DNA of 5,555 bases from a virus. The notes beneath the pieces were generated by a model. That model searched no databases. It saw only the letters and a program-made list of their open reading frames with translations, and was not told the origin of the DNA. The position numbers and the translations under genes were made by a program. Position 1 is the first letter of the stretch. Each line of letters opens with the position of its first letter. Below are positions 96 through 5,555 of the stretch, in pieces. The DNA lies in the IMG/VR virus record IMGVR_UViG_3300045988_012393, positions 1 through 5,555 of that record. One strand, written 5' to 3'.

Positions 96-102
96 CATAT
101 TG

Positions 103-143
103 ACATATGCACGCGCGCACGTAATCGCGCACACGCGCACATG
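103..143. repeat. Two alternating purine/pyrimidine (CG/CA-type) tracts with Z-DNA-forming potential
   Basis: 103-123 (acatatgcacgcgcgcacgta, 21 nt) and 126-143 (cgcgcacacgcgcacatg, 18 nt) alternate R/Y strictly and are separated by 2 nt. CGCGCAC occurs three times (114-120, 126-132, 134-140). Confidence 0.8.
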
Positions 144-185
144 ATATTATTATTATTTTTATTATTTGTTGTAGTCGTAGTAGTA
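144..185. repeat. Pure A/T run followed by trinucleotide-periodic tracts (TTA/TTT then GTA/GTC); putative DNA-unwinding element
   Basis: 144-167 contains only A and T (24 nt), read as tta tta tta ttt tta tta ttt. 171-185 reads gta gtc gta gta gta. The DUE role is inferred only from position next to the iterons and DnaA boxes. Confidence 0.45.
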
Positions 186-190
186 GGGAG

Positions 191-205
191 TGTTGAAATG
201 TTGAA
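191..205 (+). repeat. Iteron pair 1: TGTTGAA at 191-197 and 199-205
   Basis: Direct tandem copies 8 nt apart. The same 7-mer recurs in pairs at 276-290 and 340-355. Confidence 0.8.
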
Positions 206-261
206 TACTATGAATTTTTATCCTTGGAACGATATTTTTTGGATTATTTTAATGTTGATAC

Positions 262-294
262 TTTTGTGGATAACTTGTTGAATTGTTGAAAGTG
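262..294 (+). repeat. Copy A of an imperfect ~33-nt direct repeat (DnaA box plus iteron pair 2 at 276-282 and 284-290)
   Basis: ttttgtggaTaacTtgttgaa-Ttgttgaaagtg aligns with 326-359, with about 4 mismatches and 1 indel. Confidence 0.85.
265..273 (-). promoter_or_regulatory. Perfect consensus DnaA box (TTATCCACA on the minus strand)
   Basis: The + strand reads tgtggataa at 265-273, the exact reverse complement of the 9-mer DnaA box consensus TTATCCACA. Confidence 0.5.
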
Positions 295-302
295 TAGCAA
301 TA

Positions 303-322
303 TGCACAAAACCATTTGTGCA
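303..322. other. 8-bp perfect hairpin/palindrome centred between the two 33-nt repeats
   Basis: tgcacaaa (303-310), loop acca, tttgtgca (315-322). Its core ACAAAACCATTT (306-317) recurs exactly at 552-563. Confidence 0.7.
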
Positions 323-325
323 ACT

Positions 326-359
326 TTTTGTGGAAAACCTGTTGAAAGTGTTGAAAGCG
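326..359 (+). repeat. Copy B of the imperfect ~33-nt direct repeat (DnaA-like box plus iteron pair 3 at 340-346 and 349-355)
   Basis: ttttgtggaAaacCtgttgaaaGtgttgaaagcg. TGTTGAAAG is perfectly tandem at 340-348 and 349-357, followed by a degenerate third unit cgttaaaaa. Confidence 0.85.
329..337 (-). promoter_or_regulatory. DnaA-box-like site (TTTTCCACA, fits the relaxed TTWTNCACA consensus)
   Basis: The + strand reads tgtggaaaa at 329-337, at the equivalent position in repeat copy B. Confidence 0.4.
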
Positions 360-408
360 TTAAAAACTGTGATTAAAGGCAGTCCGGCGAGCGAACCAAA
401 AAAGTCAC

Positions 409-463
409 GCCATGCTCTTCGTACGGCGCACCGCGCCTACCGCATGACATTCAAATGCATGGC
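409..463 (+). other. GC-rich structured element (outer 7-bp helix enclosing an 8-bp bulged hairpin); candidate ssDNA initiation signal or small structured RNA
   Basis: gccatgc (409-415) pairs with gcatggc (457-463). Inside, gta-c-ggcgc (421-429), loop acc, gcgcc-tac (433-440). An alternative helix pairs 404-410 with 442-448 (6 of 7). This is a GC island inside an otherwise AT-rich spacer. Confidence 0.4.
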
Positions 464-489
464 ACAGCTAAACTTTTTTCAAAAACCTC

Positions 490-518
490 TTGACAAACCC
501 TCTTTTTTATGATACAAA
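490..518 (+). promoter_or_regulatory. Candidate sigma70-type promoter for the gene array
   Basis: A perfect TTGACA lies at 490-495, followed by a 17-nt spacer and TACAAA at 513-518, preceded by TG at 510-511 (extended -10 form TGaTACAAA). It sits about 80 nt upstream of the first SD. The -10 lacks the final T. Confidence 0.4.
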
Positions 519-597
519 AAGAATAGTTAAACAGCACAGAAGTGCTATTTTACAAAACCATTTATACAAAATAACTTTTAGAAAGAGGTGAACCGCT

Positions 598-1397: not shown

Positions 1398-1860
1398 CTG
1401 GCGGCAGACCGCCACAGCAAAGCCGACCGAGGCCGGGGAAAGCGTAAGGCGCACGTACCTCTGGGAACGCAATGAAAAAGGCGAAAAGGTGCTGAGACTC
1501 GACCAGACCATTGACCAGCAAGCCGAGATAGACAGCTACCTCGAAGAAACCAAACTGGAAAACATCATCCGACGATCAAGCATCGACCCGGACATTGCAG
1601 CACGCATCAGGCCAGACATCGGTGGCGGCATCCAAGACTTTACCGAAGCACCGCAGAATCTGGCCGAACTCCAGAACATCATGATCCGAGCAGAGCAAAT
1701 CTGGGACGAGGTGCCGAAAGAAATCAAGCTCAAGTTTGACAACGACGTGGACAAATTCATCTCAAGTTTTGGAACTGTCGAATGGGCCAAAAATCTGGGC
1801 ATCTACCAAGAAAAACAGGTCGAAACCGAAGCAACTGAGGCAACGGAGGCCAAAGAATGA
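1375..1860 (+). CDS. VP3: VP3-like internal scaffolding protein, 161 aa from ATG 1375 (TTG 1372 is an alternative start)
   Basis: AAGGAG (1359-1364) lies upstream. The C-terminal block FTEAPQNLAELQNIMIRAEQIWDEVPKEIKLKFDNDVDKFISSF and the central ...EIDSYLEETKLENIIRR... fit the gokushovirus VP3 scaffold pattern. The stop overlaps the VP1 start as ATGA. Confidence 0.8.
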   Translation: MAYRSVSNWRQTATAKPTEAGESVRRTYLWERNEKGEKVLRLDQTIDQQAEIDSYLEETKLENIIRRSSIDPDIAARIRPDIGGGIQDFTEAPQNLAELQNIMIRAEQIWDEVPKEIKLKFDNDVDKFISSFGTVEWAKNLGIYQEKQVETEATEATEAKE

Positions 1861-3557
1861 ACAGAAACAAAGACGCAGGATTCAATCAGGTACCGCGCCT
1901 GGACATCACGCGAAGTCGATTCAAGCGGAGACAGGACGTCAAATTAACGCTGAACGCAGGACAGCTTATCCCGTTTTACGTGGACGAAGTACTTCCGGGC
2001 GACACCTTCAGCATTGACCAAGCGGCAATTATCCGCATGACGACGCCTATTTTCCCGGTTATGGATAACTGTCACATGGACATTTATTATTTTAATGTCC
2101 CATGTCGAATCCTTTGGAAAAACTTCAAACGGTTTATGGGCGAAAACGATACGGGGCCGTGGGCACAGACTCAGGAATACACCATTCCACAGGTCAAAGT
2201 AACCGGCACCGCAGAAAAGCCGGCACCTTATGAGGGCAGCATCCTTGACTACATGGGCATTCCAACCAAGGTAAGCAAGGGAGCAGACACGGCGTTCACC
2301 GTCAACGCACTGCCCATGCGAGCATATGCTATGATATGGCAGGAGTGGTTCAGAGACCAAAACGTGGATAATCCGGCCATCAACAGCGATGCAGACGCGA
2401 CCGTAAACTATACGGATGATGAAACCAAAGGCATGGACGCAGCAACACCGGATTTGGAATATATTCTTCAGAACGCATACACAGGCGGCAGACCTTTGCC
2501 GGTCAACAAATACCACGACTACTTTACATCAGCGCTGCCGAATCCGCAAAAAGCAGGACAGCCGGTTACAATTCCGCTAGGCGGAAATGCTAGCATTAAA
2601 CCATATGAAAACAACCTTAAAACGTTAAACCCGGATGACATTTTCTTCAGACAAAACAGCAGCAGCGCATCAAACCCATACCCGAAATCGGGTATCCAAT
2701 ATGAAGAAAACATTGGAACCTACACAATATCGGGTCCAACACAACCAACCGGTAGTGATGTAACAACCCATTATCTCATGGCAGACCTTAGCAGCGTAAA
2801 CGCAACGACCATCAACCAACTCCGACAGGCGTTTCAGGTTCAGAAATATTACGAAGAGCTGGCACGAGGCGGCAGCCGCTACCGTGAGATGATCTACTCG
2901 CTTTTCCACACCAAGATAAGCGATAAAACCGTACAGATTCCGGAGTATCTGGGCGGTACGCGTATCACCATCAATATGAGTCAGGTCATCCAGACCAGCG
3001 GCACAACCGCCGAAAGTCCGCAGGGCAACACCGCAGCCGTAAGCGTTACGCCGTACAACGGCAGTATGTTCACGAAGAGCTTTGAAGAGCACGGCTTTGT
3101 TATCGGAGTGTGCTGCATCAGGCATGACCACACGTATCAACAGGGACTCGAAAGGATGTGGAGTCGGAAAACCAATCTGGATTTCTATTACCCGGTCTTC
3201 GCAAATCTGGGAGAGCAAGCAATTTTGAAAAAGGAATTGTATCTGACCGGCACGGAATCCGACGAACAGGCGTTCGGGTATCAGGAGGCGTGGGCAGAAT
3301 ACCGAATGAAGCCGAACAGAATCAGCGGAAAATTCCGGAGCAACGCAACGGGAACGCTGGACAGTTGGCACTACGGCGACAACTACACGACGACGCCAAG
3401 CCTAAGTCAAGCATGGATGAAAGAGGGAGACTCCGAAATTCAGAGGACTCTGGCAGTGGACAACGAACCTCAGTTTATCATGGACACCATCATCGACAAC
3501 ACCAGCGTCAGACCGATGCCCATGTACAGCATTCCGGGACTCGTTGACCATCACTAA
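1857..3557 (+). CDS. VP1: Major capsid protein VP1 (Microviridae F-type jelly roll), 566 aa
   Basis: GGAGG (1845-1849) lies 7 nt upstream. The signature blocks are present: RSRFKRRQDVKLTLNAGQLIPFYVDEVLPGDTF, PIFPVMDN, DYFTSALPNPQK, TINQLRQAFQVQKYYEELARGGSRYREMIYSLF and IPEYLGG. Confidence 0.97.
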   Translation: MNRNKDAGFNQVPRLDITRSRFKRRQDVKLTLNAGQLIPFYVDEVLPGDTFSIDQAAIIRMTTPIFPVMDNCHMDIYYFNVPCRILWKNFKRFMGENDTGPWAQTQEYTIPQVKVTGTAEKPAPYEGSILDYMGIPTKVSKGADTAFTVNALPMRAYAMIWQEWFRDQNVDNPAINSDADATVNYTDDETKGMDAATPDLEYILQNAYTGGRPLPVNKYHDYFTSALPNPQKAGQPVTIPLGGNASIKPYENNLKTLNPDDIFFRQNSSSASNPYPKSGIQYEENIGTYTISGPTQPTGSDVTTHYLMADLSSVNATTINQLRQAFQVQKYYEELARGGSRYREMIYSLFHTKISDKTVQIPEYLGGTRITINMSQVIQTSGTTAESPQGNTAAVSVTPYNGSMFTKSFEEHGFVIGVCCIRHDHTYQQGLERMWSRKTNLDFYYPVFANLGEQAILKKELYLTGTESDEQAFGYQEAWAEYRMKPNRISGKFRSNATGTLDSWHYGDNYTTTPSLSQAWMKEGDSEIQRTLAVDNEPQFIMDTIIDNTSVRPMPMYSIPGLVDHH

Positions 3558-3613: not shown

Positions 3614-4486
3614 ATGGGAATACTAGCCACATTCGGACTACCTCTCTTAAAAGCAGCAATACCAAGTCTTGTGGGAGCAGCAGCAAACAAGCTCTTTGGT
3701 ACAAGCGGAAGCTACGGACAGCAGGGGCAAGCTAACAGTCAAAGCAGCGGTTCGAGCTGGTCTCAAGGCACAAGCGACAGTTGGAGCACAAGCAGCAGCG
3801 GCACAAACGACGCTGTAAACAAAAGCATCGCAGCACTTGCAAACCAGCTAAGCCAAGGCAGCATGGCCGGACAGCAAAAATACAATCGAAATTCCATGCT
3901 CATGCAAATGGGCTACAACACGTTCGCTGCAATTCAGCAAGGCGTATACAATCACATCGAGCAGCAAACAGCAATGAGCTACAACACCGCAGAAGCCGCA
4001 AAAAACAGAGCATGGCAAGAGCAAATGAGTAACACGTCTTACCAAAGAGCAGTTGAGGACATGCGAAAAGCTGGCATCAACCCTATCTTAGCATACACAC
4101 AGGGCGGAGCAAGCACACCGAGCGGAGCGCAGGGAACAATCGGAAGCGCAAGTATGGGCATGGCATCCAGTAGCGCGCTGGGAGCAACGGCATTGCCAGG
4201 CATCAAACAGGACGGCAGCTGGAGCAGTCACAGTGAGGCATGGAGTCACGCAGAAAACGCAGCACAGAGCATCCAGCAAGCAATCATGTCGAGCAGCTCA
4301 AGCCCTGTCAGACTCAGGGGAGAAATGGAACGCATTGCAGAAACAGCAGTAGATGGAGCAATAAACCTTAAAGAAAAACTTGCAGCACTGCCGGTATCGG
4401 ACAAGGAAAGACGGAGAACCGCAGAAAACCTTGAAAGAGGACGGCGGCAAACAATCGGAATGGGAACAACCGGAAATTATTGGTAA
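3614..4486 (+). CDS. VP2: Minor capsid / DNA pilot protein VP2, 290 aa
   Basis: The N-terminus is hydrophobic and a Ser/Gly/Gln-rich stretch follows. The conserved core [27 protein letters not shown] is typical of gokushovirus VP2 pilot proteins. The gene sits directly after VP1. Confidence 0.93.
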
Positions 4487-4491
4487 CAAAA

Positions 4492-5511
4492 ATGGGATGC
4501 AACAAGCCGTTAATTCGGTTTTACGTACCTCACGACAGAGAGGCAAGTGGAAGAGTGTATTCACTTGCCTCTTTTAACGAGATACACAAGACCAAAATGA
4601 CATACGAAAACTTAATATACCGCAAAGATGTAATGTTGATACCATGCGGACAGTGTACAGGGTGCAGGCTCCGAAAACGAAAAGACTGGGCCACGCGGAT
4701 GGAGCTAGAAGCATACGGATACGACAAAGAAAGTGTCTGGTTTATCACACTAACATACGACGATGACCATGTACCAACGCAAGACACAAAAACAGGCGAA
4801 ATCTACAAAGGCGGCGTAAACGTCTGGAAAGGCGGCTCAGAGCGTCCAAGAACAACGCAAACACTAAGCGTAGAGGATACACAGCTCTTTATTAAAAGAC
4901 TAAGGAAGGCCGTCAGAGAGCCTCTAAGATACTTTTTAGCAGGAGAGTACGGGGACAACACGGCAAGGCCACACTACCACATGATACTGTATGGGTGGCA
5001 TCCGAACGACTTAAAGCCAATCCACAAGTTATCGAGACATGGACACTACACAAGTGATAAACTGGTCAAAATCTGGGGACAAGGTACAGTTGACATAGCA
5101 CAAGCAACACCAGAAACCTATAATTATGTTGCAGGTTATGTGACCAAAAAGCTATACGGCAACGACAAAAAGCGTTACCAAAAAATGGGTTTAATACCAC
5201 CATTTTGCACAATGAGCCGAAAGCCGGGACTCGGAGACAAATGGTTTCAAAACCATCAAGATCGACTCTGGCAGCAGGGATACATACAGCTTACCAACGG
5301 CAAGAGAGCAGCCATACCGGAATACTACTGGCGAAAACTGGAAGCGGAAAACCCTGAAAAAGCATGGAGAATCAAACAGTATCGGCAGGAAAAAGCCATT
5401 GCGTCCCTAATCGAAAGAAACGCGGAAACAGATAAATCATACGCAGAGCAGCTAAAGGACAAGGAAGCATCCATGTCCAAGAAGATGAGCAAAGCCAAAG
5501 GCGTATTTTGA
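4492..5511 (+). CDS. VP4: Replication initiation protein VP4 (HUH rolling-circle endonuclease, phiX174 A-like), 339 aa from ATG 4492
   Basis: The protein starts MGCNKPL and has a CxxCxxC cluster (PCGQCTGCRLRKRKDW). The three RCR motifs are present: motif 1 FITLTYDD, motif 2 PHYHMILYG (HUH), and motif 3 YVAGYVTKK (YxxxY, two catalytic tyrosines). The track's TTG 4480 start is less likely. The ATG lies 5 nt after the VP2 stop with no clear SD. Confidence 0.96.
   Translation: MGCNKPLIRFYVPHDREASGRVYSLASFNEIHKTKMTYENLIYRKDVMLIPCGQCTGCRLRKRKDWATRMELEAYGYDKESVWFITLTYDDDHVPTQDTKTGEIYKGGVNVWKGGSERPRTTQTLSVEDTQLFIKRLRKAVREPLRYFLAGEYGDNTARPHYHMILYGWHPNDLKPIHKLSRHGHYTSDKLVKIWGQGTVDIAQATPETYNYVAGYVTKKLYGNDKKRYQKMGLIPPFCTMSRKPGLGDKWFQNHQDRLWQQGYIQLTNGKRAAIPEYYWRKLEAENPEKAWRIKQYRQEKAIASLIERNAETDKSYAEQLKDKEASMSKKMSKAKGVF
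4539..4572 (+). other. 11-bp perfect inverted repeat (hairpin, 12-nt loop) inside the 5' end of the Rep gene
   Basis: agaggcaagtg (4539-4549) pairs with cacttgcctct (4562-4572). The loop is gaagagtgtatt, and ttt follows at 4573-4575. Confidence 0.85.
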
Positions 5512-5555
5512 CACTTTGGTGTCACTCAGCCAAGTAACTATCAAGTATAGACTTG
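5479..5555. repeat. Second copy of the 77-nt terminal redundancy (Rep 3' end, stop-codon hairpin, first part of the terminator)
   Basis: Identical to 1-77. Confidence 0.97.

Follow-up and report, generated by a model that had tools for sequence, protein, structure and literature searches.

The window analysed here is the whole 5,555-nt stretch of IMG/VR record IMGVR_UViG_3300045988_012393, which represents one circular gokushovirus genome of 5478 nt, positions 1–77 being repeated as 5479–5555. All genes are on the + strand, and several small proteins are encoded besides those named below. A gap of 564 nt (34–597), or 10.3% of the genome, separates the stop codon of the rolling-circle Rep from the next plausible gene, for which a CTG start at 598 lies 7 nt downstream of the ribosome-binding site (RBS) AGAGGTG at 584–590. 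Inside this gap, positions ~141–366 are best explained, on their sequence, as a copy, on a phage, of the basal unwinding system (BUS) found at bacterial chromosomal origins, with the DnaA-box clusters that flank it. In GenBank the closest entries, at ~87% identity, are genomes from the faeces of humans, monkeys and pigs filed as 'Gokushovirus WZ-2015a' and 'Microviridae sp.'. The features of the module are given below, followed by the genes.

144–167, unstranded: pure A/T run of 24 nt, by its sequence a candidate DNA-unwinding element (DUE); phages and bacterial dnaA-dnaN origins have an A/T-rich tract beyond the trios
162–176, + strand: phage-specific extension at the DUE/trio boundary, here TTATTTGTTGTAGTC; family consensus T(A)A(C)TTGTTGTAGnn
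166–186, + strand: trinucleotide array in a single register, TTG TTG TAG TCG TAG TAG TAG
178–186 and 172–174, + strand: DnaA-trios (3'-GAT-5', as defined in PMC8287927), three box-proximal TAG at 178–186 plus TAG at 172–174
187–190, unstranded: GGAG, 4-bp G-rich spacer from the trios to the first box, corresponding to the BUS 'GC-rich region (4 bp on average)'
191–207, + strand: box pair 1, TGTTGAAAT at 191–199 and TGTTGAATA at 199–207, 8-bp phased
253–292, + strand: box cluster 2, TGTTGATAC at 253–261, TGTGGATAA at 265–273 (perfect E. coli type), TGTTGAATT at 276–284 and TGTTGAAAG at 284–292
303–322, unstranded: small palindrome between the box clusters, TGCACAAA acca TTTGTGCA
329–366, + strand: box cluster 3, TGTGGAAAA at 329–337, TGTTGAAAG at 340–348 and again at 349–357, and a degenerate CGTTAAAAA at 358–366
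1857–3557, + strand: capsid F
3614–4486, + strand: pilot protein
+ strand: Chp2-type scaffold and ORF5
4492–5511, + strand, wrapping around the circle (3' end at 1–33, stop TGA 31–33): Rep/VP4, a HUH rolling-circle protein (ORF list; Pfam REP_ORF2-G2P, 4.4e-17)

The original prediction described 96–597 as non-coding DNA making up about 9% of the genome. The measured share is 9.2%, the full gap being larger. In keeping with the elements described there, an alternating purine/pyrimidine (Pu/Py) tract, a pure A/T run, repeated 9-mers, a GC-rich segment and a TTGACA hexamer were all located in the sequence. Ten same-strand 9-mers of the form TGT(G/T)GAwww were observed, two in the pair at 191–207, four in 253–292 and four in 329–366. 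The pattern TGTKGAWWW showed six matches in the window against 1.18 expected over the whole 5.5 kb; none of 200 shuffles reached six, and five of the six fell at 191–337, all on the + strand. The E. coli consensus TTATCCACA at ≤1 mismatch was also observed six times, a total reached in 0/200 shuffles, with a perfect box at 265–273 and a single-mismatch box at 329–337. The alignment form of the family, TGT(G/T)GAAAA(C), is the reverse complement of the DnaA-box-like TTTTC(C/A)ACA. Iterons and DnaA boxes had been predicted as separate classes. Both are present, but by their sequence they are one family of DnaA-box variants, the TGTGGATAA of the window being TGTTGAAAA in most relatives. Relatives also read TGTTGAAAA where the window has the degenerate box CGTTAAAAA. 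Within cluster 2, the block TTGTTGAAwTGTTGAA is invariant in the alignment. At the place of the palindrome at 303–322, other phages and host origins carry a different small palindrome.

A BUS consists of a DnaA-box pair, a spacer of ≤16 bp that includes ~4 GC-rich bp, at least three central-A trinucleotides and an unwinding region beyond them (PMC8287927). The trinucleotides are NAN, with 3'-GAT-5' (5'-TAG-3') preferred nearest the box (PMC8287927). Boxes were judged against the species' own box motif, allowing ≤2 mismatches in the better box and ≤4 in the other. In the dialect of the Oscillospirales (TGTTGAAAA/TGTGGAAAA), box 191–199 showed 1 mismatch and box 199–207 showed 2. Compared with the E. 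coli consensus TTATCCACA, the pair had 3+3 mismatches in the window, which exceeds the limit of 2 for the better box, and 1+3 in relatives, which is within the limits; the first box in most relatives is TGTGGAAAA, 1 mismatch from the E. coli TGTGGATAA. Between the distal box 199–207 and the first trio at 184–186 there are 12 nt, GGAG included, which lies within the ≤16-bp limit and the 10–13 peak. The trios run as TAG TAG TAG (178–186), then TCG, then TAG (172–174), and are invariant in phages and bacteria. This DnaA-trio array, overlooked in the earlier work, is the most conserved part of the region. Beyond it lies the 24-nt A/T run, and bacterial copies are A/T-rich at the same position. Because its setting is a phage genome, with Rep on one side and the structural genes on the other, the element is of BUS type and not a chromosomal oriC. 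DnaA is predicted from these features to bind, oligomerise on the trios and separate the strands.

Bacterial genomes, one per species, were scanned with the pattern GTAGTAGTAG-N2-8-GTKGAAA-N-GTKGAA. It matched at least 120 contigs against ~0.5 expected (an estimate for uniform composition), and the matches shared one architecture of an A/T-rich tract, (TAG)3-5, GGSC and TGTGGAAATGTGGAAAA; the phasing of TGTGGAAATGTGGAAAA is that of box pair 1. Among the matches listed, dnaA and/or dnaN lay within the fetched stretch in 114 of 120 loci (tblastn). The geometry among these was fixed: in 99/100 it was the box side that faced dnaA, and in 105/106 the A/T side faced dnaN, at a median of 108 nt. Pfam confirmed DnaA and DnaN flanking the core in 6/6 loci examined. 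This result indicates that the composite is the basal unwinding system of the chromosomal origin, and judged by sequence the phage core is the same composite as this canonical origin-opening module. Compared with the BUS of the B. subtilis incC type, the phage copy has the same elements in the same order, spacing and polarity, and its 29–32-nt composite is identical to the one between dnaA and dnaN. It differs in lying on a 5.5-kb single-stranded-DNA genome that has neither dnaA nor dnaN, in carrying a phage-only T(A)A(C)TTGTTG, and in that both its orientation and its position (one of two) vary with respect to the phage genes. The earlier view of the region as oriC-like (DUE plus DnaA boxes), rather than like a described microvirus rolling-circle origin, is thus borne out by the identity of the composite to that of dnaA-dnaN.

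The 29–32-nt pattern of (TAG)3, spacer and 8-bp-phased pair was itself seen to pinpoint the dnaA-dnaN origin (loci L021–L140). Origin taxa among the matches listed were Pyrinomonadaceae/Blastocatellia, Selenomonas, Oscillospirales, some Chloroflexota and Thermosynechococcus.

The plasmid half of the original analogy did not survive. Iteron origins of plasmids and plasmid-prophages such as P1 oriR, pSC101, F and RK2 use their own iteron-binding initiator, and their 17–22-bp iterons are distinct from DnaA boxes. They resemble the phage region in having DnaA boxes beside an A/T-rich opening region on a small extrachromosomal replicon. The genome has no plasmid-type initiator gene, the HUH Rep being the only initiator encoded, and its repeats are the boxes themselves, DnaA-box variants phased at 8–11 bp. 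A plasmid origin of the region was set aside, as PLSDB gave no plasmid match.

In element maps, each phage module ran colinear over ~200 nt with Oscillospiraceae/Ruminococcaceae origins, of which it is a miniature. The shared layout is a first pair, a ~50-nt spacer and two same-strand TGTTGAAA box clusters split by a small palindrome, and the best extended match was between phage L014 and the R. flavefaciens dnaA-dnaN region (L137), with ~74% over ~200 nt. T-type boxes averaged 6.8 and G-type boxes 1.6 in the phages, and the opposite strand had practically no boxes (mean 0.01–0.09 per module). Among the matches listed, only Oscillospirales shared this profile; their T/G-type counts were 12/2 (L136), 10/3 (L137), 7/0 (L061), 6/2 (L133) and 4/1 (both L111 and L071). 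Acidobacteriota, Selenomonas and all other taxa among those matches had G-type boxes. TGTTGAAAA appears to be the DnaA-box dialect of Oscillospirales, and from this dialect we infer that the hosts are Oscillospirales (Ruminococcaceae/Oscillospiraceae, Ruminococcus-like). The origins of Ruminococcus flavefaciens, Oscillospiraceae and Ruthenibacterium share with the phages the TGTTGAA-dominated same-strand clusters, the ~50-nt spacer and the palindrome. Unlike the phage modules, they are longer, have a few opposite-strand boxes and have (TAG)4-5 directly abutting the A/T run, with no TTGTTG. L071 and L107 were considered as binned microviruses and rejected, as no microvirus genes were found in either. 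The perfect E. coli DnaA box could have pointed to an enterobacterial host; this was ruled out because the box is a clade-specific variant of the TGTTGAAAA family. A megablast search of 5,426 complete E. coli genomes gave no match, dif-like motifs of Clostridia not having been searched for, and the idea of an XerCD/dif-integrating enterobacterial gokushovirus prophage was dropped for lack of a match in those E. coli genomes.

Lack of conservation among close relatives had been set beforehand as a ground for giving the prediction up, and the module was found to be conserved. The region is kept in 42 GenBank records, and in ~10 distant genomes it is the sole match to the window at the DNA level. 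In a MAFFT alignment of 21 genomes the core was invariant, the most invariant piece being TTGTTGTAGnnGTAGTAGTAGG, which separates the A/T run from the first box pair. The trinucleotide array at 166–186 showed near-maximal information content in phages and bacteria alike. The module is conserved across gokushovirus clades, with an invariant core while the genes diverge to 41% capsid identity. In a capsid-defined sample it was present in 62 of 67 near-complete genomes; the strict pattern detected 55 and the loose pattern 3, and four more had been missed because one TAG was TAA or the pattern was too strict.

Two genomes with 80–87% capsid identity, L352 and L333, were considered as natural deletion comparators and discarded, their contigs being broken inside the module repeats. 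L352 ends at window position 158 and restarts at 354, and metagenomic assemblies break inside box repeats in this way. Calling the module absent from incomplete contigs is therefore unreliable.

Viral contigs were also scanned with the host-type pattern, which gives a sample unbiased in the flanks, and matches were almost only in contigs of 5–6 kb. An earlier pattern had returned 38 large viral contigs, which were dismissed as chance matches to low-complexity (TTG/TAG)n repeats that had no boxes. Two larger 'viral' contigs carried BUS cores, L262 (IMG/VR, 23.6 kb) at 2050–2081 and L261 at 3675–3706, one of T-type and one of Acidobacteria-type. Both are probably fragments of cellular origins that were classed as viral.

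These data bear on the possibility that the module is a non-functional passenger, that is, a piece of host origin gained by recombination, or an assembly chimera. The colinear likeness to the R. flavefaciens origin and the tendency of assemblers to break inside the repeats would fit such an account. However, the independent genomes with the module number well over 100 and come from several studies and countries, and in closed circles the module occupies fixed places. Its core stays invariant despite the capsid divergence given above, and it carries a phage-only extension absent from the bacterial copies among the matches listed. The chance that it is a mere passenger is exceedingly slim in our estimate.

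The core lay in the orientation of the window in 80 microvirus contigs and was inverted in 19. BLAST of sub-modules showed that when the BUS is inverted the box clusters are inverted with it (93:16 and 108:21). Overall, ~83% of modules are oriented as in the window and ~17% are inverted. The Rep terminator (50:0) and a GC-rich element downstream (61:0) were never inverted. One clade has the inverted module 70–90 nt upstream of VP4, and in another the flipped module lies downstream of VP4, with the Pu/Py tract still beside the terminator. A cassette that does not depend on orientation most simply acts on duplex DNA. Neither a coding role nor one tied to the packaged strand fits well with its occurrence in both orientations.

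The 8 C counted in the original prediction at 141–300 were confirmed exactly (T75, A44, G33, C8), in a genome whose coding part is A/C/G-rich and T-poor. This composition flip is a by-product of the A/T run and of the G/T-rich boxes, all on one strand, and it runs the opposite way in the genomes with an inverted module. The T-rich, C-poor stretch could also be read as encoding a small hydrophobic membrane peptide (ORF 141–281 or 198–281), with the repeats incidental. ORF 198–281 (MLNTMNFYPWNDIFWIILMLILLWITC) was retained, conservative changes apart, in five close genomes, and T-rich codons give hydrophobic residues. However, there was no ORF of ≥25 aa in L003, L004, L005, L013 and L018, unrelated peptides in other frames occurred elsewhere, and L003 showed an in-frame stop (hand translation of the alignment row). 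The same core sits in non-coding dnaA-dnaN spacers in bacteria, 17% of modules are inverted, and a Pfam search of the module region gave no domain match, nor was there a conserved ORF. With the ORF not conserved and Pfam silent, the coding explanation was rejected as a general account and has hardly any likelihood. The 27-aa hydrophobic ORF 198–281 overlaps the spacer and box cluster 2 and is confined to the closest subclade, where a micro-peptide is possible.

What sets the phage core apart is T(A)A(C)TTGTTGTAG, which directly adjoins the trios on their DUE side and was present in 101 of 105 unique phage cores and in 0 of 118 bacterial cores among the matches listed. The extension continues the register (TTG TTG TAG nnG TAG TAG TAG), ends where the A/T run starts and is invariant in the 21-genome alignment. 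A second copy of AACTTGTTG was seen at the invariant box-box junction 271–279 (in relatives, alignment columns 296–318; GAAAAC-TTGTTGAAwTGTTGAAAG), so the DUE-side copy might be derived from a degenerate box. AACTTGTTG was also considered as a universal gokushovirus Rep site and rejected, since it was not found in BUS-less relatives.

The extension raises the possibility that the region is a Rep rolling-circle (+ strand) origin, in which T(A)A(C)TTG/TTG would be the VP4 nick site, DnaA would at most aid melting and the likeness to oriC would be secondary. The near-invariance of a motif found only in the phages is in line with this. The phiX174 nick site reads CAACTTG^ATATT, and its AACTTG hexamer, directly 5' of the nick, is common to the extension family consensus. 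The extension also adjoins an easily melted A/T-rich tract. HUH endonucleases require a single-stranded substrate. The likeness is however restricted to the hexamer, and the window itself reads ATTTG, so that AACTTG can be taken as a lead only. The phiX174 viral-strand origin (CAACTTG^ATATTAATAAC) is likewise from a member of the Microviridae and has AACTTG beside an A/T-rich tract, but it lies inside gene A; here the motif is intergenic, with the A/T tract on the other side, and no DnaA elements are annotated at the phiX origin. The 30-nt phiX174 origin CAACTTGATATTAATAACACTATAGACCAC, which is sited in the Rep gene of phiX174-type microviruses, was not found here. The motif is constant across Reps that are only ~35% identical, which a constraint from a host factor fits at least as well. 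In the ~17% of genomes with an inverted module, the strand packaged would be the other one with respect to the genes. The string recurs at the 271–279 junction, and the BUS-less relatives do not have the motif. A nick site as the main function of the region is, on this balance, decidedly improbable.

We consider it reasonably probable that, on the replicative form, the boxes are bound by host DnaA, which oligomerises onto the TAG trios and opens the A/T run. The ten same-strand boxes would be bound on the double-stranded replicative form. ATP-DnaA would then oligomerise from the 191–207 pair across GGAG onto the + strand TAG trios (from 186 back to ~166), and the adjacent 24-nt A/T run (144–167) would be stretched and opened. 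The opened region could start or license phage DNA replication using the host machinery, and T(A)A(C)TTGTTG, placed exactly where the melted stretch would end, may mark a phage-specific step, either Rep nicking or helicase entry. The outcome might be helicase loading with theta-type replication or maintenance, an exposed Rep nick site, or mainly sequestration of DnaA. From the sequence we infer DnaA binding, opening and any replication outcome. As a tentative and rather doubtful extension of this reading, a large gut gokushovirus lineage may run two systems in Oscillospirales, Rep rolling-circle replication and a DnaA-fired host-type origin for the replicative form (for replication or as a plasmid-like minichromosome), which would compete with the host oriC for DnaA.

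Several points weigh against opening by DnaA. The proximal boxes of the window are 3 mismatches each from the strict E. coli consensus and would fit only the host dialect, or the consensus only in relatives with TGTGGAAAA as first box. Distant gokushoviruses (≤51% capsid identity), including the circular L374, have no BUS, so the subfamily as a whole can do without the module. Microviruses already have a rolling-circle Rep of their own, and we know of no cultured member that needs DnaA, which makes a second initiation system unexpected. DnaA-dependent initiation is also tightly restricted within each cell cycle, which does not seem suited to lytic amplification. Oscillospirales are Gram-positive, and to our knowledge no cultured microvirus infects such hosts.

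The sequestration outcome can stand as an explanation of its own, with the box array on the multicopy replicative form acting as a DnaA sink or decoy that would retime or block host initiation, or alter DnaA-regulated transcription, with no phage origin involved. Ten same-strand boxes per 5.5-kb genome would suit such a role, and either orientation is compatible with it. A precedent is that DnaA-box clusters outside the origin modulate initiation in B. subtilis, as reported in PMC3245932. The geometry, however, is exactly that of an unwinding module, beyond a mere box cluster. Conservation is highest in the trios, GC spacer, A/T run and TTGTTG extension, which would be superfluous for pure binding, and this constraint argues against a pure sink. 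A sink is therefore unlikely as the whole explanation.

DnaA could also act on the incoming strand in the manner of the ABC primosome, which would make the region a complementary-strand (ssDNA to dsDNA) origin. DnaA is known to load helicase on phage ssDNA by way of a hairpin carrying a DnaA box (PMC6127211), and in the window the arms 262–272/301–311 (I9) are 91% complementary and include the perfect box. Against this, the boxes all run in one direction and cannot pair together, the I9 pairing occurs only in the closest subclade, and the 17% of inverted modules would place the complement in the virion. Both the uniform direction of the boxes and the inversions speak against a role of the ABC-primosome type for DnaA on that strand. 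An A site (ssi) holds its box double-stranded in a hairpin of the ssDNA; here the boxes are direct, and I9 is imperfect and restricted to close relatives. The A site of the ABC primosome is alike in that DnaA is used by a replicon with a single-stranded stage, but it has one box in a hairpin stem and no trios, as opposed to ten direct boxes, trios and a DUE in either orientation. A strand-locked GC-rich cassette next to the module is a better candidate, and we give the incoming-strand role very little probability.

That cassette belongs to the elements outside the module, which are as follows.

45–93, + strand: Rep terminator-like hairpin with T run, 13-bp perfect arms 45–57/73–85; gene-sense in relatives, 50:0
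105–140, unstranded: alternating purine/pyrimidine (CG/CA) tract, direct repeat 109–125/129–145 at 82%; lineage-specific, outside the invertible module
372–455, + strand: GC-rich conserved element, stems 409–415/442–448 (7 bp) and 425–429/433–437 (5 bp); strand-locked, 61:0
490–518, + strand: promoter-like site, TTGACA at 490–495, 14 nt, TG-a-TACAAA at 510–518
524–597, + strand: invariant leader block upstream of the first downstream gene, TTTACA at 549–554, RBS AGAGGTG at 584–590

Neither the Pu/Py tract nor the GC-rich element nor the promoter belongs to the conserved, invertible module; they differ by lineage and stay with the gene backbone. The Pu/Py tract was found in part of the alignment only, other hairpins taking its place in L010/L011/L017 and in L015/L016; across genomes its character is kept and its sequence is not. 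In L018, which has an inverted module, the equivalent of the tract (~4740–4790) remains next to the terminator. The tract thus stays with the Rep terminator on inversion and marks one boundary of the invertible cassette. In the window it folded no better than shuffles (z = 1.05).

The GC-rich segment had been predicted to be a folded element. It exists and is conserved, but folding found no support, as the ssDNA copy of the window did not outdo shuffled sequence (z = 0.15). For this genome, explanations of the Pu/Py tract and of the GC-rich element by structure were set aside on the same ground. The 12 pairs of the GC-rich element are nearly invariant, with 2 compensatory pairs in a single lineage and hardly any covariation, and Rfam gave no family match (E up to 1). 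It is absent from the genomes with an inverted module, and other lineages carry different GC-rich cassettes at the same position. We regard it as a candidate complementary-strand origin, a cassette separate from the DnaA module. By analogy, one idea is that it may resemble the interchangeable single-strand origins (sso) of rolling-circle plasmids, which likewise have a strand-specific orientation, GC-rich stems and cassettes exchanged at one position. Unlike an sso, it showed no sequence match to a curated family, minimal covariation and an unexceptional fold.

For the predicted promoter, the hexamers are kept in 6 of the 9 relatives sharing the segment, but a consensus scan made no call. The ~60 nt at 524–583 formed the most conserved block in the 462–600 alignment of nine genomes, and may hold the real promoter or leader.

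In the open-access literature we found nothing combining gokushovirus with DnaA, or Microviridae with 'DnaA box', which is not proof of absence. Among the matches listed for papers co-mentioning DnaA-trios and bacteriophages, no title described a phage origin. The kind of element is known; a conserved and invertible version of it that carries a phage-specific extension and sits on a phage with single-stranded DNA appears to be undescribed.

If the two-system reading is true, no DnaA-trio origin on a virus would precede this one, and Gokushovirinae would for the first time be linked by sequence to Gram-positive Clostridia. Should the module function as predicted, it would revise the textbook account of Microviridae replication, in which the host primosome and the phage Rep act and DnaA has no role. 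The module would also be a natural experiment on which BUS features are indispensable, with trios, spacer and box phasing invariant, and orientation and context free. The TTGTTG phage-only extension is a concrete new motif. A naturally minimised (~200 bp) portable origin of this kind could serve in genetically intractable gut Clostridia. Uncultured gut gokushoviruses are among the most abundant phages of the human and livestock gut, and the origin 'dialect' pointing to Oscillospirales would provide a host-prediction handle for them.

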